A stretch of 64,000 nucleotides of DNA from the NCBI GenBank assembly GCA_035546615.1, contig DASZWM010000006.1:128001-192000 (forward strand). The letters are read 5' to 3'. This document shows, one piece after another, positions 7,497-55,161 of this stretch. A program made the position numbers and the translations under genes. This stretch comes from Minisyncoccota bacterium. GTDB lineage: Bacteria > Patescibacteriota > Minisyncoccia > Phycocordibacterales > SBAW01. The notes beneath the pieces are model-generated. The model saw only the letters and a list, made by a program, of their open reading frames with translations. It made no database searches and had not been told where the DNA came from. Within the stretch, counting starts at the first letter, position 1. Every line of letters begins with the position of its first letter.

Positions 7497-7507
7497 TGAG
7501 ACCGAAA

Positions 7508-7531
7508 AAAGCCCACTGCTGGGCTTTTTTC
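7508..7531 (+). terminator. Rho-independent terminator after tRNA-Glu (AGCCCACTGCTGGGCT plus TTTTTT)
   Basis: Stem-loop plus T6. Confidence 0.8.
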
Positions 7532-7556
7532 GTGTACTCATGACAGACGGAAGCAT

Positions 7557-7890
7557 GTTTCTTCAGCAGAAGAAACAGCTGAGTCAGGGTCGTGGAAATT
7601 CAATCGCGACGGCGAGTGAATTATCCATGACCACGTGTGACGGCCGGAGCCATGTTTTGTTAGCAAACAAAACAGGCGAGTCCGGGTCTGGAAAATTTCT
7701 GTTTGACGAAACAGAAATTATTGTGGACCACCCGTGAGGCCGCAGCCATGTCCCGCAACGGCGGGACGGCGAGGCGGGGTCGCGAGCGAAATTTCTGACG
7801 AGAAATTTCGACTTGTGACCACAAAAAGTCCTATAAGAGGTCGGGGCCGCGAGATTTTTCCGTCAGGAAAAATACTTGTGACCCCATGTG
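7557..7890. repeat. Degenerate tandem array of five AT-rich perfect palindromes (8-12 bp stems, 3-6 nt loops) interleaved with GC-rich spacers that share GCGAG...ACTTGTGACC(A/C)C flanks
   Basis: Palindromes at 7557-7576 (GTTTCTTC-AGCA-GAAGAAAC), 7653-7670 (TTTTGTTAGCAAACAAAA), 7691-7718 (AAATTTCTGTTTGACGAAACAGAAATT), 7786-7809 (CGAAATTTCTGACGAGAAATTTCG), 7853-7872 (ATTTTTCCGTCAGGAAAAAT). Recurring flanks ACTTGTGACCAC, ACTTGTGACCCC, ATTGTGGACCAC, CCATGACCACGTGTGAC. A coding frame through the region is implausible. Confidence 0.7.
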
Positions 7891-7898
7891 ACAGCCGG

Positions 7899-7907
7899 TG
7901 GTATTCT
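7899..7907 (+). promoter_or_regulatory. Extended -10 promoter (TGGTATTCT) 8 nt upstream of the mpg ATG; near-leaderless transcript predicted
   Basis: TGn plus TAnnnT hexamer; no SD before the ATG at 7916. Confidence 0.5.
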
Positions 7908-24617: not shown

Positions 24618-25220
24618 ATGCTTGCCGTTGACGTAGAATCCTCCGGCACGGAGGCCCACAAGCACTCCATTTTGAGCCTCGGCGCCGTCGACCTCGGCAA
24701 TCCGTCCAGGCCCTTTTTCTACGAAGAGTGCCGCGCCTGGGACGGCGCCAAGCTCGAGCCCGAGGCATTTGCGGTGAACGGCTACACCGAAGCGACCGCG
24801 ACCGACCCGACCAAACAGTCCGAAGCCGACCTGGTGCATAAGTTCAAGGAATGGGCTATGCAGTCCGACGACCGCACCTTTGCGGGGCAAAACGTTTCCT
24901 TCGACCGCGATTTCCTTAAGTACGCCGCCGAGCGCGCGGGGCATACCGACTGGCCGTTCGCACACCGCACCATCGACACGCATACCCTGTGCTGGATGCA
25001 CATGGTAAAGCGTGGCCTTACGCCGCCTCTGGACCCGGTAAAGAAGCGCTCCGCGCTCGATTTGGACGCCATTCTGGTCTACTGCGGCATTCCGGACGAG
25101 CCGACGCCGCACAATGCTCTCACGGGCGCCAAGTCCCATGCCGAAGTCATCTCGCGCCTGTTGTACGATAAGAAGCTCCTGCCCGATTTCGAGCAGTTCG
25201 ACATACCCTGGCTCTCATAG
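24618..25220 (+). CDS. 3'-5' exonuclease, DEDDh (DnaQ-like) family
   Basis: Exo I AVDVESSGT, Exo II FAGQNVSFDRDFL, Exo III HNALTGAKSHAEV. Confidence 0.8.
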   Translation: MLAVDVESSGTEAHKHSILSLGAVDLGNPSRPFFYEECRAWDGAKLEPEAFAVNGYTEATATDPTKQSEADLVHKFKEWAMQSDDRTFAGQNVSFDRDFLKYAAERAGHTDWPFAHRTIDTHTLCWMHMVKRGLTPPLDPVKKRSALDLDAILVYCGIPDEPTPHNALTGAKSHAEVISRLLYDKKLLPDFEQFDIPWLS

Positions 25221-25239
25221 CCGTTCTTTGGTAGGGTCA

Positions 25240-25741
25240 AAATAGAGCAACCGCTCTGTCAAAAAGAAGGAATATCCGATGACAGGAATAGTCGATACAC
25301 GCCGCGCATGTCTAAGATGCGGTAGCCCCATCTCATCCGCAAGCAGCCCGCTTGTTGTGCAAGAGCGAGGCTTCAGCGCAGAAGCGTGCGTGCCCGCTGC
25401 GATATGTCGCAATTCGGCCTGTGGCCAGGTCACTGCGGATCGCGCAAGTGTGGCGAACTCATCGTTGCGGTGGATGTACGGGCGCACCCCGGTCACTTTC
25501 GTTCCGGGCCCGATTTCCCGGTCTAATGAGTTTTTGCTTACTCCTACGGCCGCGCAGCTCCATCGGGCGTAAGGCTCAACGGAAACGTCACCTCCCCGTC
25601 GCGTCCAGTACAGGATGCGACGGTTTTGCTTCGCAAACCCGCGACCCCGCCTCACAATCGCTTTAGCGATATGTTCCGGCCTTCAATTCCGGGCGCAGGC
25701 AAAGCAGTTTACCTGCTCGGCCCTCCTTCGTTAACACTCAG
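25240..25741 (-). other. ~500-nt region with low coding potential between the exonuclease and tRNA-Pro; candidate structured non-coding RNA (or pseudogene). Strand is guessed from a minus-orientation terminator-like hairpin at 25244-25258
   Basis: The only ORFs here are a Cys/Ser/Arg-rich 97-aa frame and a 146-aa GTG frame whose GC3 (~60%) equals bulk GC, versus ~75-80% in neighbouring real genes. Many local hairpins; no RNase P, tmRNA or SRP consensus found by eye. Confidence 0.25.
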
Positions 25742-25812
25742 TCGGGCCGCCGGGAATTGAACCCGGTCTACATGCACCCCATGCATGTGTACTGCCGGTA
25801 TACTACGGCCCG
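25742..25812 (-). tRNA. tRNA-Pro (anticodon GGG)
   Basis: Folded by hand on the minus strand: acceptor CGGGCCG/CGGCCCG, D-arm GTAT/GTAC, anticodon stem CATGC/GCATG with loop ATGGGGT, variable loop TAGA, T-arm CCGGG-TTCAATT-CCCGG, discriminator A. Confidence 0.8.
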
Positions 25813-25891
25813 TTTCTTCCAGTATTTACTACCATACCTCACTCTGTTAGTGTTGCGCTAGTAACGTACCTCAATAACCGGAGACTGCGCC

Positions 25892-26674
25892 ATGGCTGAC
25901 AAGCCGCTTATTCCGAGTGCCGCATTCCATATCGACGAGATCAAGAAGCTCCGGGCCTCCAAGGAGGAGCGGAGGAAGACCTATGAGGCGGGTCTCGCCG
26001 AGGATCAGCAGGATATCGACGAGCACCTCGAATACCTGCGCGATAATCTCAAAGCCGGGGATACTACTGGCGACCGCATAACCGACCATGTACTGACCCA
26101 TTGGGGCGGCGACCCCGAGCGGGAAGAGTGGTATCGGGCTGCAGACGCCCGGCTCAAGGGCCACGGAGGGCAACTCGTACTGACCTTCGCGACCCAGCTG
26201 GTCGCAGAAGGTCCGTTCATCCGGCACATGGAGCACCCCGGGGCCAAACACATCATGGCCCCGCCGCGTCCGGCCAAAAAGCTGGTTACGCATTATCAGC
26301 TGGCGGTCCTGACCGGCGAGGAGCTCGTCTTGACCGATGCCTCGCCGCGCCTGCCGACCAAACAGTACATCGTCTGGTCGGTAAAAGAGGGTAACTCAAG
26401 CCCCCCGACCGTCGTCAACAGCCTCATTCCGAACGAGATGTTGCCGCTGCCGGCGAAGCCGGTATCAGGGGCGAGACCTCCCCAGTTCTCCCATCTTCTT
26501 GTCGACATCGACGACGTCGACGAAGACGTGCCGGTCGACAACCCGCTTTTTGTGGGCGACGAAGAGGTGGGCGAGCTCTTCAAGAAGAACGGCTGGCCCG
26601 AGAGCTTCTGGATACAATGCCTCAACAAGCTGGGCCGCTACGATCTCGTAGCGCCCGACCATCAGACTGCGTAA
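25892..26674 (+). CDS. Hypothetical protein (260 aa)
   Basis: GGAGA 8 nt upstream of the ATG; acidic, protein-like composition; no family recognised. Confidence 0.5.
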   Translation: MADKPLIPSAAFHIDEIKKLRASKEERRKTYEAGLAEDQQDIDEHLEYLRDNLKAGDTTGDRITDHVLTHWGGDPEREEWYRAADARLKGHGGQLVLTFATQLVAEGPFIRHMEHPGAKHIMAPPRPAKKLVTHYQLAVLTGEELVLTDASPRLPTKQYIVWSVKEGNSSPPTVVNSLIPNEMLPLPAKPVSGARPPQFSHLLVDIDDVDEDVPVDNPLFVGDEEVGELFKKNGWPESFWIQCLNKLGRYDLVAPDHQTA

Positions 26675-27160: not shown

Positions 27161-27337
27161 AGAACCTCCCGTACGCTCGGGCCTCCGAGCTCGTACACAA
27201 ATTATAGCACCGGGTGAATCTTGAGTGAATAGAGGGCATGGAAGGTCGGCAAAACCCCTAAAAAGCTTTAAAACAAAGGCATATCGCCGTCAATTCACGC
27301 GTGTTTCAGGACCCTGTTTTTTGTCAAGGGACCCCTA

Positions 27338-27367
27338 TTGACCCTATTGACAAAAGTATGCTATCAT
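27338..27367 (+). promoter_or_regulatory. Candidate promoter TTGACC-N18-TATCAT, within a tandem CCTATTGAC x2 repeat, upstream of the SLT-like gene
   Basis: -35 at 27338-27343, -10 at 27362-27367; direct repeat CCCTATTGACCCTATTGACA. Confidence 0.4.
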
Positions 27368-27375
27368 TATCTTAT

Positions 27376-27406
27376 CTCCGGCGTCGAACCGGAGCTTTTG
27401 TTTTCT
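27376..27406 (+). terminator. Intrinsic-terminator-like hairpin (CTCCGG-CGTCGAA-CCGGAG plus CTTTTGTTTTCT) immediately downstream of the candidate promoter and ~45 nt upstream of the ATG. Possible attenuator or short transcript
   Basis: Perfect 6-bp stem plus T-rich tract on the plus strand inside a 5' leader. Confidence 0.4.
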
Positions 27407-27447
27407 AGGTCCCTAACCCGTTCCCGTGCCCCGTTCCCACGCCCCTT

Positions 27448-27885
27448 ATGAACATCACTGCTAGCGTCGCTATCGCAGTCTCCGCAGCGTTCAATGTGAC
27501 CCCTGCGCAGATGCCGCCCCTGCCGGCTCCGATGCCCCAGGTGCAGACCGTTAAGGAGTATGTAGAACAGTACTTTGCCGACGAGCCCATCCTTGCCGCT
27601 ATCGCGTCCTGCGAGTCGCAGTACCGCCAGTTCGACAAGAACGGCGACGTTCTCAAGAACAGCGCGGGCAGCTCGGCGGTAGGTCTCTTCCAGATTATGT
27701 CGTCCATCCACTCGGACTTCGCTGACGACAAGCTCGGCCTCGACATCAATACGCTCCAGGGTAACGCCGCCTACGCGCGCTACCTGTACGACAAGCAGGG
27801 CCTCAAGCCTTGGGAAGCGTCCAAAGCGTGCTGGTCCAAGAGCCAGGCATACAAGAATATGCAGGCTCTCGCCCTCAATAAGTAA
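27448..27885 (+). CDS. Transglycosylase-like (SLT / lysozyme-like) secreted protein
   Basis: AIASCESQYRQF...SSAVGLFQIMSSIHS...GNAAYARYLY resembles the SLT/transglycosylase-like catalytic motif (E-S ... GLxQI ... Y). Confidence 0.6.
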   Translation: MNITASVAIAVSAAFNVTPAQMPPLPAPMPQVQTVKEYVEQYFADEPILAAIASCESQYRQFDKNGDVLKNSAGSSAVGLFQIMSSIHSDFADDKLGLDINTLQGNAAYARYLYDKQGLKPWEASKACWSKSQAYKNMQALALNK

Positions 27886-28099
27886 AACAGCATAAGTAAT
27901 CTAAAACAAAAACCGTCCGGCTAACCCCGGGCGGTTTTTGTATAGTAAGGGTCAAAAAGGAAAGGGGCCGGTCCGAAGACTGGCCCCATACATGGTAAGA
28001 CGTCGAGACGTCCCGCGCCCTGAACGCTTTCAAAGCGGCCCACGCACCTTTATAGCGTACTGCATGCGGCACACAATCGCCAAGCGGGGATAGTGGATA

Positions 28100-28108
28100 T
28101 GCTAGAAT
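28100..28108 (+). promoter_or_regulatory. Extended -10 (TGCTAGAAT) 6 nt upstream of the ATG at 28115; leaderless-type
   Basis: TGn plus TAGAAT; no SD. Confidence 0.45.
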
Positions 28109-28114
28109 ACGGGT

Positions 28115-28630
28115 ATGAAAAAGCATCTTGCCTTGTTCGCCATTGGCGCCGTGTTCCTGCTTCCTCAGCCGGCCGCCGCCGCTTCTCTTACTCAGGCGCA
28201 GGTAATCGCCATCGTGAGCCTGCTCCAGTCCTTTGGCGCGGATTCCTCCGTTATCGCCAACGTCCAGAAGTCGCTGGGGGGCACTTCCATAACCGTTTCC
28301 AATACCTGCAAATCGAACCTGGTCGTTACGGCCGACACCGATACGGTCAATCTCAAGGTAGATAATTCCAAGGACCGCGGCAACGTGGTATTCACCCTCG
28401 ATATAACCTCCTGCAAGTCCTTCACTTCAAGTGCTGTACATATGCTCTTCGACAAAAGGGAAGCGTATCTGCCTATAGACACCAGCGGCACCAAGCAAAG
28501 CGACGGCACTTGGCGCTCCACCACCGACGCTACCGCAAGCGGCTCGATGTTCCGCACGACAGGGGAGCATCTGGTCATCTTCGACTACCAAGGCCTCACC
28601 ACGAGCCTCGTCATCAACGTCAAACCGTAA
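28115..28630 (+). CDS. Hypothetical secreted protein (171 aa) with a Sec signal peptide
   Basis: MKKHLALFAIGAVFLLPQPAAAAS; Thr/Ser-rich mature part. Confidence 0.6.
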   Translation: MKKHLALFAIGAVFLLPQPAAAASLTQAQVIAIVSLLQSFGADSSVIANVQKSLGGTSITVSNTCKSNLVVTADTDTVNLKVDNSKDRGNVVFTLDITSCKSFTSSAVHMLFDKREAYLPIDTSGTKQSDGTWRSTTDATASGSMFRTTGEHLVIFDYQGLTTSLVINVKP

Positions 28631-28642
28631 TACGTTAAAATA

Positions 28643-28672
28643 TTGACGATTCCACATATTTTGTGGTATTTT
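28643..28672 (+). promoter_or_regulatory. Promoter TTGACG-N18-TATTTT with TGTGG extension (TGTGGTATTTT) for the tautomerase-like gene
   Basis: -35 at 28643-28648, -10 at 28667-28672. Confidence 0.45.
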
Positions 28673-28716
28673 GTCCCTTGGCTAGATTTAACCAAGCGCC
28701 GAAGGACGCATAGTAA

Positions 28717-29076
28717 ATGCCGCAGATTACGCTTTGGTGCCTTCCGCATATGTCGGAAGGAAAACTGCGCGAGCTTCATAAGAGTGTCGTTGCAGCAGCG
28801 GTCAGCATCAAGGAGCTCGGACTCAAGGACGAGAACGATTTCCTGACCGTTTTTCCGGTCGATATGATGGAATACGGTCTCGGTACCGAGATCATGGTCC
28901 AGGTGTCGGAGCTCTGGGACAAGCCGGAGCGTACGCCTGAGGTCCGCAACCGCCTCGCTCAAGCGCTGGGCAAGGCGGTCAAGGAACTGTTCCCAGGTGC
29001 GCTCGTTGCAGCCCGCATCGACCCGCCCTTCAGCCCGAAAGAACATGGATTCTGGGCGTCAAATATGCCGGAATAA
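28717..29076 (+). CDS. Hypothetical protein, possibly tautomerase-like (N-terminal Met-Pro)
   Basis: Begins MPQITLW...; 119 aa. Assignment weak, based only on the MP start and size. Confidence 0.45.
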   Translation: MPQITLWCLPHMSEGKLRELHKSVVAAAVSIKELGLKDENDFLTVFPVDMMEYGLGTEIMVQVSELWDKPERTPEVRNRLAQALGKAVKELFPGALVAARIDPPFSPKEHGFWASNMPE

Positions 29077-29080
29077 TACC

Positions 29081-29140
29081 GGCCGACGAATGAAAAGCCT
29101 TCCGGCGATTCACTTCGTCGGCCGGCTTTTCTTTTATATA
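29081..29140 (+). terminator. Strong rho-independent terminator (ACCGGCCGACGAA...TTCGTCGGCCGGC plus TTTTCTTTT)
   Basis: 13-bp stem plus T-run; marks the left edge of the low-GC island. Confidence 0.75.
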
Positions 29141-29272
29141 AGCAGGGAAGTGGCTTCCCTCTTTGTGGCGAGAAAATAGAGTAGGTGGAAATCCCGCTTT
29201 ATAATTTTAGATTATTCCCAGATCTTTGAGTTTCTAAGGTAAGAATCCCTACCTGTCTTTATCGTAGAAACC

Positions 29273-30331
29273 CTATCCGTTCTTGGCAAGCTTGTCGGTG
29301 TTGGAAGGGTTTCCCGCACCACTGTTCTTAGGGGGTTTATTGTCAGATCCTCCACCGTCACTAACTTTATCTTTTTCTTTTCCATTTTCGTTACCCGGTT
29401 TAATTATACTTGCTTTATCTTGTTTTTGTAAAAGTTTATCAATAAAGCCTGTTATATCATCACTCCCATCATCTACGAGCATAAGATGGATAGAAAGTTT
29501 TTCCAGAGACTTCTTATATTCTTCACTAAATGGCATCTCATCAGCTTTAATTACATTAGGTAAATAGGACTTGAGAAGGCTATAGTCTACGACGTATCCG
29601 TGGTCAGGGCAGTCGTATGCTAGGAAATCAATAAAGTTATCGACCTTAGCTTGCTCCATCTCACTGTATTGAGTAAGAATCCGCTTAGCATACATTCTCC
29701 CAACATCTAGAGAGCGAGTCATTGTGCCGAGCTCTATTGTTTCCACTTTCTGAAGAAGGGGTTGATAGAATTTTGCAGAATAATCCAGCAACATTTCGGC
29801 AAGGGGTTTTCTCCCGATTTTCAATATCTCCTCAGTGACTTTCTTTTTAGAACGAAGTTGGTTGAACATTTCGAGCATACCTTGTCTTGAGCGAGCCTCA
29901 ATTTGTAAGAGACTGGCTTGTACATTCAAAGCGGATGACCACTGGCCTTCGGGGTCTGTGTCATCATCCTTCTTGACTTGTACGTCAATTGGTCCAAGTT
30001 CGCCGAAGTCACCAAGAACGACTCGGCTCGCGCCGAGAGTAAATATAGTGGCGGCGCTTTTTGCCCAAAACGGGATTACGACATTTACAATATCGAACTT
30101 CTCACGAAATGTTCTTATTAACCGATAGGCATCGTCAGCTTGTCCTCCTCCAGATTGAAGGATTATATCTACTTCTGCGCTATGTGGGGTGTCTTGCAGA
30201 CTCCTTCGGACTCTTACTACATTGATGCCACCGATTCCACCAAAGTAGACAAAAGTAGGTATTTCTCCTCTTAAATTTTGCAACACTTTAACCTCGGTGA
30301 GTACTTTTGGAATATCTCTCATCTCGGACAT
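29273..30331 (-). CDS. SDH-family (serine dehydrogenase proteinase, S49/ClpP-fold) putative peptidase with a Lys/Gly/Asp-rich C-terminal tail
   Basis: VDIILQSGGGQADDAYRLIRTF...VIPFWAKSAATIFTLGASRVVLGDFGELGPIDVQV parallels the SDH/S49 pattern (HTPGG ... AMSGGT ... LGPVDPQ). AT-rich codons. Confidence 0.6.
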   Translation of the reverse strand: MSEMRDIPKVLTEVKVLQNLRGEIPTFVYFGGIGGINVVRVRRSLQDTPHSAEVDIILQSGGGQADDAYRLIRTFREKFDIVNVVIPFWAKSAATIFTLGASRVVLGDFGELGPIDVQVKKDDDTDPEGQWSSALNVQASLLQIEARSRQGMLEMFNQLRSKKKVTEEILKIGRKPLAEMLLDYSAKFYQPLLQKVETIELGTMTRSLDVGRMYAKRILTQYSEMEQAKVDNFIDFLAYDCPDHGYVVDYSLLKSYLPNVIKADEMPFSEEYKKSLEKLSIHLMLVDDGSDDITGFIDKLLQKQDKASIIKPGNENGKEKDKVSDGGGSDNKPPKNSGAGNPSNTDKLAKNG

Positions 30332-30717
30332 AATATCTCTGTAGAGGCGCCTTGTAAATCAACATGCGTTTTGAGAAGGGAAATGGATTATGCTGTAAAG
30401 ACTTTATGATCCCGAGTTCATTGATAAACAAAAGGATTCTATCCGGGGAAGGGGTGCGGATTATTCTAGCCGAGATTCCCGGCCCTCTCTAGGTTAAAAG
30501 GTATATATAGGTCGCAAAAGGTATATTGTGCGACGTATCTACCCTTTAACTAATCCCGCACGCGGCGGGCTTCCCCATTTGATTTGCATCACTCAATTAA
30601 GTTTCCGCAGCGTATCAGTTTTTAACAATCTCCTTCCAGATCTGCGCTGTGCTTTTTCAACGAACTGGGTACTCCCCTGAACACAATAGTCGGACAGGGG
30701 AGCAAGTCCAGTTTTAA

Positions 30718-30726
30718 GGGGGGGGG
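30718..30726. repeat. Homopolymeric G9 (C9 on the minus strand) tract in the island's non-coding arm
   Basis: GGGGGGGGG at 30718-30726; an unusual simple-sequence repeat for this sequence and a potential slipped-strand site. Confidence 0.6.
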
Positions 30727-30773
30727 TATAAACTCCTCCTTTGCTTCCCTGCCCCAGCTTTCCCTTATGCCTA

Positions 30774-30803
30774 TTGACATACTTTATAATGATATGTTAT
30801 GAT
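30774..30803 (+). promoter_or_regulatory. Near-consensus promoter TTGACA-N18-TATGAT, followed by a leader hairpin (TGAAC-GGAAA-GTTCA) and a perfect SD (AAGGAGGTGA)
   Basis: -35 at 30774-30779, -10 at 30798-30803, GGAGGT at 30827-30832. Confidence 0.55.
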
Positions 30804-30836
30804 ACATGAACGGAAAGTTCATTGAAGGAGGTGACT

Positions 30837-31088
30837 ATGACGGAACGTCGCAGGAACATCCCGAAGGGCAAGACGAGAGTCATCGGCTGCGATCTCTTCG
30901 ATCGCAGCGATTACTTGGTCGGCGACTATCACAAGCGTGAAGACGCTTTCAAGATCGCCGACGAGAAGAACCGCGCTCGCACCGGCTCGATGGATGATGT
31001 CTATTACGTCTACGACGACACCGGCAAGTACATTCGCGGCGAGGAAGCCGTGAAGGAGCTGACCGGCGGCCTCGGCATCAGTCCGTAG
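30837..31088 (+). CDS. Hypothetical small protein (83 aa, MTERRRNIPKGKTRVIGCDLFDRSDYLVGDYHKREDAFKIADEKNRARTGSMDDVYYVYDDTGKYIRGEEAVKELTGGLGISP)
   Basis: Strongest expression signals in the window (consensus promoter, perfect SD, terminator); high-GC native codon usage; no family recognised. Confidence 0.6.
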   Translation: MTERRRNIPKGKTRVIGCDLFDRSDYLVGDYHKREDAFKIADEKNRARTGSMDDVYYVYDDTGKYIRGEEAVKELTGGLGISP

Positions 31089-31117
31089 GTCGAAGATGGG
31101 GCGATAGCGTAGCATTA

Positions 31118-31148
31118 GGCGGGAGAGAAATCTCCCGCCTTTTCTTTT
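31118..31148 (+). terminator. Rho-independent terminator (GGCGGGAGAGAAATCTCCCGCC plus TTTTCTTTT)
   Basis: 8-bp stem plus T-run. Confidence 0.75.
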
Positions 31149-31234
31149 GATACGTTTTGCGACGCCGCTTCAGATAATTGAATTTGTGCGACACTTATAA
31201 CCTCGCGACCCGGCTGGTACAATGACTGGTACGC

Positions 31235-48360: not shown

Positions 48361-48411
48361 ATGGCACTTAGTGTATCAGAAAATCCTTCCCTACCAAGGC
48401 TATTTCTATAC

Positions 48412-48440
48412 TTGACTTTCTACTTAAATAGGAGTATAAT
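48412..48440 (+). promoter_or_regulatory. Consensus promoter TTGACT-N17-TATAAT, 4 nt upstream of the ATG at 48445 (leaderless-type)
   Basis: -35 at 48412-48417, -10 at 48435-48440. Confidence 0.55.
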
Positions 48441-48444
48441 TAAC

Positions 48445-48843
48445 ATGAAACTGAACATTGGAGTACTAAAGATGCCAAAGTCAGAGAAGCCCAACGGTCT
48501 TACCGTCCTCCAGCGTTTTGTGACGGAGGAGATTTTCAAGGTCAGCGCAGAGATCGCCAAGAGATCACAGCAGACGGGAGTGAAGTCCCACACAGCTGCC
48601 TTTACTGCCGTCTTTGGGAAGCGTCTTGCGGTGCTTGATGCAATCTTGCTGGTGGTGAACCACCACCAGCACCGCCACAAAGGCTTATCGGAGAAGACTC
48701 GCCTCAATCTGATTCAGGCGGCAGAGACTTCTTTGTGGTCCTCCTCTCTTTCTGCAGACGGCGAGGAGGTGTCGCGCTATGTACCTCCCATGATGGAAGA
48801 AGACAAGATGCGCGAGTTGTTCCGTCTGATCCGTGCTGCCTAA
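48445..48843 (+). CDS. Hypothetical protein (132 aa; MKLNIGVLKMPKSEKPNG...HHQHRHKG...)
   Basis: The track ORF 48226-48843 is trimmed to the first ATG after the promoter; no family recognised. Confidence 0.5.
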   Translation: MKLNIGVLKMPKSEKPNGLTVLQRFVTEEIFKVSAEIAKRSQQTGVKSHTAAFTAVFGKRLAVLDAILLVVNHHQHRHKGLSEKTRLNLIQAAETSLWSSSLSADGEEVSRYVPPMMEEDKMRELFRLIRAA

Positions 48844-48846
48844 CCC

Positions 48847-48890
48847 GCCCGCAGAAGCCGTTCCGGCTCTGTCGGGCGGTTTCTGTTTAT
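48847..48890 (+). terminator. Terminator hairpin (CCGCCCG...CGGGCGG plus TTTCTGTTT)
   Basis: GC stem plus T-rich tract. Confidence 0.55.
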
Positions 48891-48892
48891 AT

Positions 48893-48950
48893 GACAACTA
48901 GAGTCATAGATAATTTAGTTGTCGTCACAACTAAATTTCTGCCGACCCCG
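48893..48950. repeat. Cluster of three ACAACTA(A) elements forming two nested inverted repeats (GACAACTA...TAGTTGTC...ACAACTAA) between the convergent genes
   Basis: Seen directly; no T-tract, so not a simple terminator. Confidence 0.5.
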
Positions 48951-49034
48951 CCTCAGCTATTTTGCTTGCTGGCAAAATATGCTTCCGGCCCGTGTAAGTG
49001 CAGCAAAAAGTAAAGCAGTTTACTTTTTTCAGCC

Positions 49035-54520: not shown

Positions 54521-54747
54521 GAAGTATAGTTAGCGCTTGCGGCCACATGTCGAGTTTAGCCGTCGCTAAACTCGCACGCGGTCAGGCGTCGTTTTCTGCT
54601 GAAAACGCGCACGACCCTGGCTCGCGCCGTCGCGCTCCGCCTCTGAATCCTTCAGGTGTTCGGATTCAGCCCGCCTCGCCATTTTGCAAGTGCAAAATAT
54701 GGCTCCGGCCGTCTCGCGTTTAATAAAAGCAAAACTGATTGCTTTTA

Positions 54748-55161
54748 TTAGCGCTTCGACCACTGCTTGCGCTTGCGGGCTTTTCTGAGGCCGAACTTGC
54801 GGCGCTCTTTAGCGCGAGGGTCGCGCTTGAGGAAGCCCTCCTTCTTGAGGACGCCGCGCAGGTCGGCCTGATAGTCGACGAGCGCGCGGGAAATAGCATG
54901 GCGTACCGCGATAGCCTGCCCCGCGATGCCGCCGCCGCGGACAACGATGGTAACCGCGAACTGAACCGGCAAATTTACCTTGAGGAACGGCTCCATAGCC
55001 GCTATGCGAAGGGCTTCGGTATCAAAATACTTGTTCGCGTCCATGTTGTTTATGGAAACGATGGTGCGCGGGCCCGGCGTAAGGCGGGCGCGGGCGATAG
55101 CCGTCTTGCGGCGGCCGATGGTCTCTATATAGCGGTCTGTTTCTTTGGGTTTGGTTGCCAT
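54748..55161 (-). CDS. rpsI: 30S ribosomal protein S9
   Basis: ...GGGIAGQAIAVRHAISRAL... C-terminal KR-rich tail. Confidence 0.95.
   Translation of the reverse strand: MATKPKETDRYIETIGRRKTAIARARLTPGPRTIVSINNMDANKYFDTEALRIAAMEPFLKVNLPVQFAVTIVVRGGGIAGQAIAVRHAISRALVDYQADLRGVLKKEGFLKRDPRAKERRKFGLRKARKRKQWSKR

Follow-up and report, generated by a model that had tools for sequence, protein, structure and literature searches.

The stretch of DNA analysed here (hereafter the window; 64,000 nucleotides (nt) of contig DASZWM010000006.1) belongs to a genome of the Paceibacteria type (Patescibacteria, or Candidate Phyla Radiation) with a GC content of ~60%. We studied the gap between an exonuclease gene and a tRNA gene in this window, and in particular the ~130 nt of the gap nearest to the tRNA gene, which we assign to a family of putative insertion elements without an open reading frame (ORF). 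The left border of the gap is the gene of an RNase_T-type 3'-5' exonuclease (24618-25220, + strand), which was taken from the ORF list and matched Pfam PF00929 at 3e-09. On the other side lies the target gene, tRNA-Pro(GGG) (25741-25812, - strand), called by ARAGORN and scoring 52.9 bits with the Rfam tRNA model; its 3' end points toward the insertion. A weak + strand hairpin found by a terminator scan (25209-25223) straddles the stop codon of the exonuclease gene. A preliminary description of the gap had regarded it as low-coding, highly structured and a candidate for a large non-coding RNA (ncRNA).

For comparison, 78 loci (L001-L078) were fetched by the exonuclease protein; they came from metagenome-assembled genomes (MAGs) labelled Kaiserbacteria, Adlerbacteria or Paceibacterota. 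A lookup of the exact exonuclease protein returned no record. The same order was kept in the 78 loci: an S41 protease, ribosomal proteins L9 and L27, two small membrane proteins, the exonuclease, a variable stretch and an SLT-domain protein. Among relatives with an exonuclease identity of 74-90%, tRNA-Pro stands 0-36 nt from the exonuclease gene. It is 36 nt from the stop codon in L001 (90% amino acid identity), 6 nt from it in L073 (88%) and abuts it in L009. Because tRNA-Pro is so near to the exonuclease gene in these close relatives, the 520 nt of the window are a lineage-specific insertion at the 3' end of tRNA-Pro, and the flanking synteny is kept.

The junction between the exonuclease gene and tRNA-Pro is a hot spot. 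It holds an unrelated ORF in L070 and a truncated gene fragment in L020, and in L048, L003 and L034 the 3' end of the tRNA is partially duplicated there. In L048 (4708-4750) the tRNA is followed by 16 nt, by GTGAC and then by a displaced tRNA 3' end, and scar-like remains also lie just 3' of tRNA-Pro, in the sense of the tRNA, in L003 and L034. These remains look like scars of lost elements. The majority of the 78 loci have no tRNA at that place. Where tRNA-Pro(GGG) is present, it stands on the + strand in seven relatives and on the - strand in eight, with the orientation of the flanks constant. Such inversions may have originated in inverted partial tRNA copies (X', see below) left by elements.

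The element copy (about 25596-25727, - strand) has the same sense as tRNA-Pro, and 18 nt on this strand separate its start from the tRNA 3' end. At its upstream side stands GGGCCG (25718-25723), which copies the 5' acceptor strand of tRNA-Pro and is thus complementary to the tRNA 3' strand CGGCCC. This hexamer covaries with the host tRNA, since L020 has GGGCTG and CAGCCC. It is followed by hairpin C (25695-25716, GCAGGUAAA-CUGC-UUUGCCUGC), the upstream hairpin of the family with its CUGC loop, here without a U-run; hairpin C with a AAACTGCTTT core was also found at 49005-49029 and in L020. Then comes X' (CCCGGAAUUGAA, 25682-25693), the reverse complement of T54-G65 of tRNA-Pro (TTCAATTCC(C)GG). 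X' includes nine contiguous nucleotides that are exactly complementary to the tRNA (chance ~0.006) and, as is the rule in the family, stops 2 nt before CCGGAA. The core (25615-25682) comprises the helix P2a (GCC:GGC), a GGA/GA internal loop, the hairpin P2b (ATCGC-TAAA-GCGAT, 25657-25670), the joining strand J2/3 (UGAGGCGGGG) and a truncated P3.

The core was matched by the covariance model R1 of the family with 41.9 bits (E 6.6e-8), and nhmmer matched it too. The core features by which we recognise a member are P2a of the form GNC:GNC, the GGA/GA loop, P2b, UGAGGCGGGGUCG, P3 and the GUGAC end; the copy matches this core with a shortened P3 and with GUCGC in the place of GUGAC. X' also has the expected position, and the copy is co-oriented with its target and directly behind it. 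A direct repeat after GUGAC is absent here and present at the rpsI copy described below. When the 521-nt gap was compared with the 78 related loci by blastn, a single 53-nt match was obtained, in L020 (83% identity over 53 nt); the piece that L020 has in common with the window is 25641-25723 (83 nt). The local structures named in the preliminary description are all real and all belong to this copy: GCAGG..CCTGC is hairpin C, ATCGC-TAAA-GCGAT is P2b, and the T-arm-like piece is X', an inverted partial copy of the T-loop and T-stem of tRNA-Pro. We also considered a degenerate tRNA-Ser, tRNA-Sec or transfer-messenger RNA (tmRNA) in the three hairpins and rejected it; ARAGORN and Rfam were silent, and the apparent anticodon-like loop is the complement of the T-loop. 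Co-transcription of the element with tRNA-Pro by read-through is plausible.

A metagenome scan with a pattern made from the conserved strands of the family gave at least 120 stretches, about two thirds of which were real members; the family counts given below stem from the matches listed. We built the covariance model from 24 members, with 77 model positions. With filters off it found eight matches in the window, behind tRNA-Glu, tRNA-Pro, dnaJ and rpsI, and it found at least 95 + 15 in other fetched loci. The exonuclease loci (590 kb) gave one match. The family is thus abundant in this genome and found in many metagenome contigs. An intact element is ~130-190 nt long and has no ORF.

The members have one fold in common. 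Unrelated members that were folded as single sequences gave the same three-way junction, with z values of -4.6 to -6.3. In the model alignment of 95 sequences, pairing was possible in 91.6% of the cells, compared with 66.4% in shuffles and 30-46% with slid partners, and 24 of the 27 pairs had changes on both sides. The covariation score was 0.494 versus 0.117, and none of 500 shuffles was as high. Helix P1 is formed by X' and the sequence just past the element. P2 consists of a 3-base-pair (bp) GNC:GNC helix, whose middle pair covaries (CG 87, GC 3, AU 1, UA 1), of the GGA/GA internal loop and of a hairpin that can have any sequence. P3 is a long AU-rich hairpin with a bulged A, at the base of which GGUCG pairs with UGACC. 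A single G·U pair is present unchanged in 92 of 93 sequences. The sense strand was more stable than the antisense strand in 80 of 82 members and had more G·U pairs (134 vs 40). It is thus one particular strand that folds, and this strand reads in the same direction as the upstream gene. The P2 loop, GCC-G-GA-A opposite U-GA-GGC, would be a tandem sheared G·A motif resembling a kink-turn, as far as its letters suggest; its conservation is partly fixed by the ascertainment pattern.

In some members (L116, L192 and L095), GUGAC is separated from the displaced target end by an additional module made up of CGAAAG, a small hairpin and GTTCCC. No Rfam family was matched by the elements in 20 family loci or by the tRNA-Glu array of the window, even at E<=5-10. 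An apparent overlap of the family with RNase P RNA in L181 proved to be a neighbouring RNase P gene ~2.3 kb off. Readings of the junction strands as a hepatitis delta virus-like ribozyme, a hammerhead or a box C/D RNA were dropped on inspection, as order and lengths do not fit. A viral origin is likewise not supported: of three scans of IMG/VR by pattern, two were empty and one yielded two hits, each a chance match that the covariance model did not recognise. The open-access literature, searched by topic and by sequence string, held no description of the family. It has no model in Rfam 15 and appears to be undescribed in the literature searched.

The window holds other copies as well. Downstream of tRNA-Glu(CUC) and its terminator lies a tandem array of 3.5 units (7544-7884, + strand), whose covariance-model matches are at 7544-7633, 7641-7730, 7737-7821 and 7838-7884. 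Over 7497-7905 the units have diverged, and their hairpins vary by compensatory changes. The spacers of the array (CACGTGTGAC, CCCATGTGAC) resemble a decayed tRNA-Glu 3' end with its trailer (GTCATGAGAC), and the X' of the first unit, CTCATGAC, is complementary to the tRNA-Glu 3' end and trailer. The dnaJ copy (48901-49033, - strand; E 2.6e-7 with the covariance model, fold z -6.3) begins 2 nt past the stop codon of dnaJ, a gene confirmed by the Pfam DnaJ family. It consists of hairpin C (49005-49029), X' (CUUACACG, 48991-48998) and the core (48901-48991), all on the - strand, and its X' is complementary to CGTGTAAG, which crosses the dnaJ stop codon. We had considered this copy as the omega RNA of a TnpB gene, which was ruled out because the adjoining gene is DnaJ. 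The copy lies in a 670-nt ORF-poor gap between trpS and dnaJ (48361-49034), which also holds a 123-amino acid ORF (48472-48843, + strand) with no Pfam match and with its own terminator.

Behind rpsI, two units (54668-54711 and 54579-54643, - strand; region 54530-54756) sit between this gene and the grpE-dnaK operon. The only two occurrences of the 9-mer AAGCGCTAA in the 64 kb bracket these units, one at the rpsI stop codon (54748-54756) and the other as a displaced copy (54530-54538). The native end of rpsI reads CGCAAGCGCTAA (R-K-R-stop) and its current end reads TCGAAGCGCTAA (S-K-R-stop). It seems that the insertion replaced the last codons of this ribosomal protein gene.

A tRNA or tmRNA gene was found no more than 260 nt upstream in 58 of 93 matches, on the same strand in 57 of the 58, and 27 tRNA species were represented. 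The 3' ends of rplL, rpsI and dnaJ also serve as targets. Members of what we call the open class have two copies of the final ~18-21 nt of their target, one as the functional end of the gene and one directly after GUGAC. In most of 39 tRNA pairs, this repeat begins at C56 of the T-loop, just past GGTT, and reaches the 3' end of the tRNA. In L157 (1-180) the target is a tmRNA gene, recognised by a partial Rfam match to the tmRNA 3' end, and its sequence from the T-loop to the 3' end is duplicated after the element. L048 reveals where the two copies came from. The present 3' strand of its tRNA mismatches its own 5' acceptor strand and the displaced downstream copy matches it, so the upstream copy came with the element.

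X', a stretch of 7-20 nt immediately 5' of the core, reads as the reverse complement of the target. In 23 of 82 members, 8 nt or more were complementary where expected; swapped partners gave a mean of 3.3 and a maximum of 8. In L194 and L113, the upstream repeat copy is a better match to X' than is the downstream copy. Among 24 members, the start of the duplex with the intact upstream site lies precisely 2 nt 5' of the repeat boundary in 20, and in 23 a spacing of precisely 2 nt separates the end of X' from CCGGAA. The two extra positions are TT in tRNAs, and they covary in the non-TT case L168 (GA<->TC); L191 (TG<->CA), L182 and L144, read by eye, behave likewise. From the 2-nt register and these covarying positions, it follows that X' fits the target in its uninterrupted form, on both sides of the insertion point. 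Such a fit would not be needed by plain attachment (att) sites.

These regularities suggest a guide-like mechanism, which we deduce from the sequences. When read in the direction of the upstream gene, an intact element has five parts. The first, X_e, is a copy of the final ~18-21 nt of the target that the element brings with it; in tRNAs and tmRNA it spans the T-loop C56 to the 3' end, so that the gene stays whole. A hairpin, often a terminator, comes second, and third X', with its 7-20 nt complementary to the uninterrupted target. The fourth is the three-way-junction core, with the tandem-G·A loop in P2 and with the AU-rich P3 carrying the bulged A and the invariant G·U. The fifth is the 3' end GUGAC, after which the displaced native target end (X_t) follows. 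The folded sense strand would most likely be RNA, made by read-through from a strong upstream gene. X' would pair across the insertion point of an empty target and thereby select it, and strands would be joined 2 nt inside the X' duplex, beside the 3' end that P3 holds in place. Catalysis could be due to a protein, of the host or a helper, or to the RNA itself.

Our preferred interpretation, which we regard as probable though far from secure, is that the gap is an insertion at the tRNA-Pro 3' end and that its tRNA-proximal ~130 nt are a decayed copy of an ORF-less, site-specific insertion element. Several points weigh against it. The copy at tRNA-Pro shows just part of the hallmarks of the family: its P3 is short, its 3' end is GUCGC instead of the GUGAC of the family, the displaced 3' repeat is missing (no second CAATTCCCGGCGGCCCGA with up to three mismatches), and it folds weakly (z -1.6 versus shuffles). 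We take these four features to mean that the copy is truncated and decaying. The rest of the interval, 25221-25595, is not accounted for; these 375 nt make up 72% of it. In this part we had read by eye a second and a third decayed copy and a pseudo-tRNA-Pro. They were withdrawn because their alignment scores were no better than those of shuffles; in the local alignments, 115 of 300 and 30 of 300 shuffles scored as high, and similarity to element copy 1 or to the tRNA did not exceed chance. For the family as a whole, the pattern used for fishing fixed CCGGAA and TGAGGCGGGGTCG, which makes the conservation of both motifs partly circular, and the covariance-model alignment leans to the model's own structure. 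Mobility is putative, being read from filled versus empty sites and from repeats. The folded strand may be RNA or single-stranded DNA, and an upstream hairpin that truly terminates transcription may leave little transcript of the core. Finally, tyrosine integrases classically leave the same signature, a crossover in the T-loop and a block of identity that extends to the tRNA 3' end.

A bolder version of this interpretation is possible, and we put it forward as a rather doubtful proposal: the family may be a self-contained, nucleic-acid-guided, programmable insertion element without an ORF, distinct from introns, from the bridge-RNA systems of the insertion sequence (IS) family IS110 and from integrase-borne islands. 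The element would act as a ~100-nt three-way-junction RNA, in which P3 would hold the RNA's own 3' end (GUGAC-OH) at the junction. Catalysis would come from the RNA, as a new small recombining ribozyme, or from a host protein recruited by the tandem G·A and the AU-rich P3, and the element's own copy of the target end would keep the gene that was hit functional.

The family lacks a defining feature of each known system with which we compared it. The bridge (seek) RNAs of IS110/IS1111, the guides of IS200/IS605 and the omega RNAs of TnpB/IscB resemble it in having a structured non-coding part with a target-complementary segment. As in IS110/IS605 guide systems, the choice of target is seemingly programmable, X' changing with the target, and the spacing between guide, scaffold and joining point is fixed. 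The base-pairing register by which the insertion point is predicted (20/24 and 23/24) is an analogy of logic with IS110/IS605 only. Unlike these systems, the family has no DEDD or serine recombinase, TnpA or TnpB gene in or beside its elements, has a single guide instead of separate target and donor loops, and duplicates ~20 nt of the target. It also has no sequence or Rfam similarity to them; the likeness is one of logic, not a tested membership.

Short repeats of bacterial genomes were compared as well, namely repetitive extragenic palindromes (REP) with their BIME and REPIN arrangements, Correia and RUP elements, Rickettsia palindromic elements and miniature inverted-repeat transposable elements (MITEs). 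Like the family, they are multi-copy, ORF-less, 100-200 nt long and rich in hairpins, they lie behind genes and often by terminators, and their copy number varies sharply between related lineages. In contrast to them, the family has, on inspection, no terminal inverted repeats and no short target-site duplication of fixed length. It is site-specific for particular gene 3' ends, which it restores, and in place of a simple palindrome it has several helices that meet at a junction with conserved nucleotides.

The main rival of our interpretation is a conventional tyrosine integrase that targets T-loops and acts in trans. The recombinase, encoded elsewhere on a phage, an integrative and conjugative element or the chromosome, would insert small circles at tRNA T-loops, and the locus would be an integrase-mobilised miniature element or an att-site scar. 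The conserved core would be cargo (a small RNA gene) or arm DNA, and X' would be incidental or structural. We think this explanation has a small but appreciable chance of being right. The T-loop is the textbook sublocation for crossovers by P4-type and other integrases that target tRNA and tmRNA genes, and the crossover in the family falls in the 7-nt T-loop, with a block of identity to the tRNA or tmRNA 3' end. Islands and prophages of this type and cis-mobilizable elements (CIMEs) share with the family the insertion in the T-loop, the supply of a replacement 3' end with the tRNA or tmRNA kept intact, the displaced native 3' fragment that gives a direct repeat of ~20 nt, the piling up of tandem arrays and scars at the same tRNA, and the use and restoration of protein-gene 3' ends. 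The element supplies the upstream repeat copy in L048 and L194, and several relatives have partial repeats or scars at tRNA-Pro, with flips of the tRNA orientation. The tandem arrays have a parallel at ssrA islands (PMC3146451).

However, the family is much smaller than these islands and CIMEs (130-190 nt), has no ORF and no integrase nearby, and uses many targets per genome. None of ~50 loci with flanks contained an integrase, and no recombinase, reverse transcriptase or other enriched ORF was found among 726 ORFs from 51 loci, in which the only clusters were rplJ/rplL-type neighbours. The neighbours tested in the window likewise had no recombinase match in Pfam. With at least four target genes in 64 kb, and 27 tRNA species plus rplL, rpsI and dnaJ in the family, the integrase would need to be very promiscuous. 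Att sites have neither a three-way-junction core supported by covariation nor a target-complementary segment in a 2-nt register, and the family has both. The 2-nt ruler and the covarying X' are unexpected for att sites, and the covarying hairpins and the invariant G·U favour a folded single strand over duplex arm sites. Hence an integrase would account for the crossover and the repeats, but would leave unexplained the ruler, the covarying X' and the large number of different targets.

A second alternative is that the family is a resident, cis-acting RNA module at 3' ends, which serves termination, processing or stability of highly expressed genes and spread by duplication or recombination. Every copy has the orientation of the gene that it directly follows, be it a tRNA, tmRNA, rplL, rpsI or dnaJ gene. 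Many upstream hairpins are terminators, in rplL copies X' and the gene end pair to form the terminator itself, and the structure is kept among diverged paralogues of one genome. This alternative leaves unexplained the duplication of the target end, the foreign replacement of the native end and the empty sites in close relatives. The copy number also speaks against it, with 1-2 copies in 590 kb of related loci versus eight in the 64-kb window. We consider it unlikely.

The left part of the gap could instead encode a real orphan protein. ORF97 (25279-25572, + strand) would give a small Cys-containing protein expressed with the exonuclease gene, with the element copy merely beside it. It has a Shine-Dalgarno-like GAAGGA 8 nt before its ATG, and 24 nt past its stop codon is a terminator-like hairpin of 11 bp (8 G-C) followed by TTTTGCTT (25596-25623, + strand), which was found by the scan; the 3' part of the element, on the opposite strand, overlaps with it. 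A CxxC pair and three more Cys could form a zinc ribbon. Against this, the codon-usage score of ORF97 is negative throughout. A log-odds profile trained on 24 long ORFs of the window was negative in all six frames from about 25190 to 25850, compared with +0.2 to +0.7 in the flanking genes. The three longest ORFs of the gap had no Pfam match (the best E for ORF97 was 0.13), and neither ORF97 nor ORF146 (25215-25655, - strand) had a homologue in a search of 5.8 billion protein clusters. ORF97 also had no tblastx match in 198 related or fetched loci. ORF97 is overlapped by two other ORFs (104 and 146 amino acids), as chance predicts in DNA of 60% GC, and no promoter-like site was found for it. 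ORF97 is thus probably not a gene, and we hold the orphan-protein explanation to be improbable. The statement of the preliminary description that the region is low-coding, without a convincing ORF, therefore holds, and the protein homologue in a gap frame that would have spoken for a gene was not found.

Its other proposal, one large structured ncRNA over the whole ~500 nt, of the ROOL, GOLLD or OLE kind or a divergent tmRNA, RNase P or 6S RNA, is effectively refuted, and we give it very little chance. The gap is indeed ORF-poor, lies beside a tRNA and has several local hairpins. However, the part 25221-25595 was no better folded than dinucleotide shuffles on either strand (z -0.57 on the - strand, +0.37 on the + strand), and the element copy reached a z of only -1.6; as a result, 'highly structured' fails for most of the region. 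A cmscan against Rfam 15, which includes ROOL, GOLLD, OLE, HEARO, tmRNA, RNase P, 6S and signal recognition particle RNA, covered the whole window at the gathering score and 24900-26100 at E<=10 and saw only two tRNAs; no model of a large ncRNA was matched at any threshold. ARAGORN found no tmRNA. The sequence is missing from all close relatives. Nothing similar to 25221-25595 was found by blastn or tblastx in the 198 loci or among phages and plasmids, nor by the covariance-model scan of the window with filters off (25221-25600). The comparison of the tRNA-Pro flank in these loci, proposed as a check, gave only the element core in common with L020. The minus-strand terminator claimed at 25244-25258 was not called by the scan, which called the plus-strand hairpin at 25596-25623 instead. 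What stands of the proposal is a structured, non-coding, tRNA-linked element in the orientation of tRNA-Pro, as the covariance-model match (E 6.6e-8) and the covariation in the family indicate; a single RNA of the ROOL or GOLLD type does not. The interval 25221-25595 is therefore an orphan spacer without a counterpart in relatives, without a homologue and without structure beyond that of shuffles. It may be debris of older insertions.

In a further part of the family, the closed class, a local hairpin replaces the open P1, and the element lies inside tRNA fragments or pseudo-tRNAs. This recalls introns, and the tRNA genes of Patescibacteria are rich in introns (PMC13011429). The family could then consist of self-splicing or protein-spliced tRNA introns, like the group I introns of Patescibacteria. 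Closed-class members sit within tRNA-like sequence at the T-loop, the anticodon loop or the junction of D and anticodon arms (L181, L164, L174, L094, L118). As in introns with guide sequences, an internal guide pairs with sequence flanking the insertion point and a conserved G·U stands near the junction, and the setting of Patescibacteria tRNA genes is the same. The open-P1 and closed-P1 forms also recall permuted ribozymes. The core of the family is, in contrast, far smaller (77 model positions) and has no Rfam intron match, and neither Intron_gpI nor group II was matched in 20 loci. A deletion scan restored a junction-spanning tRNA in 10 of 82 members; nine of these had an intact tRNA just upstream, and one was of the closed class (of ~39). 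The interrupted copy was a fragment or pseudogene in all members examined (L181, L164, L174, L150, L094, L118, L111). An intact copy of the same tRNA adjoined the interrupted one in nearly all examined (L181, L164, L174, L150, L094, L118), the exception being L111, whose neighbours Leu(gag) and Val(tac) are of other tRNA species. Open-class members sit behind intact genes with a duplicated target end. Unlike that of introns, removal of the family's elements does not restore tRNAs. As removal of closed-class elements almost never restores a tRNA, they are insertions and not working introns, and we give the intron explanation practically no credence.

Some closed-class loci have a complex structure. 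Tandem 5' fragments of tRNAs (e.g. tRNA-Gln 1-24) were found in L174 (600-1250), L164, L181 and L150. The repeat unit joins such a fragment to a closed-class element, which is followed by a short piece of tRNA and a spacer resembling a promoter; an intact tRNA closes the array. L164 has two different inserts within one pseudo-tRNA-Trp.

At the tRNA-Pro locus, the preferred interpretation explains the odd hairpins and the 'extra T-arm' and removes a false candidate for a large ncRNA. In the family, covariation and high copy number are combined with precise insertion behind tRNA, tmRNA, ribosomal and chaperone genes, with the gene restored, and with a segment in fixed register. Should X' truly act as a guide, the family would constitute an insertion system that is both very compact and retargetable, and would add a new case of gene-less mobile DNA that persists in minimal genomes, in a group known for genome reduction (PMC13011429). 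The elements also matter for the annotation of Patescibacteria MAGs, where they give rise to pseudo-tRNAs, tRNA fragments, tRNA genes in flipped orientation and long intergenic regions that look 'empty'.

The other side of tRNA-Pro is variable too. Beside the tRNA, 25892-26674 encodes a 260-amino acid protein without a Pfam family, which has relatives (32-36% identity) in 3 of the 78 loci. Since these relatives are weak and patchy, the protein belongs to the variable stretch. Further on, 27200-31200 is a stretch of lower GC with atypical genes, including several ORFs without a Pfam match and a ClpP-like serine protease of the SDH type (29273-30331) whose GC content at third codon positions is 0.39. 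This stretch is probably a horizontally acquired island 5' of tRNA-Pro.

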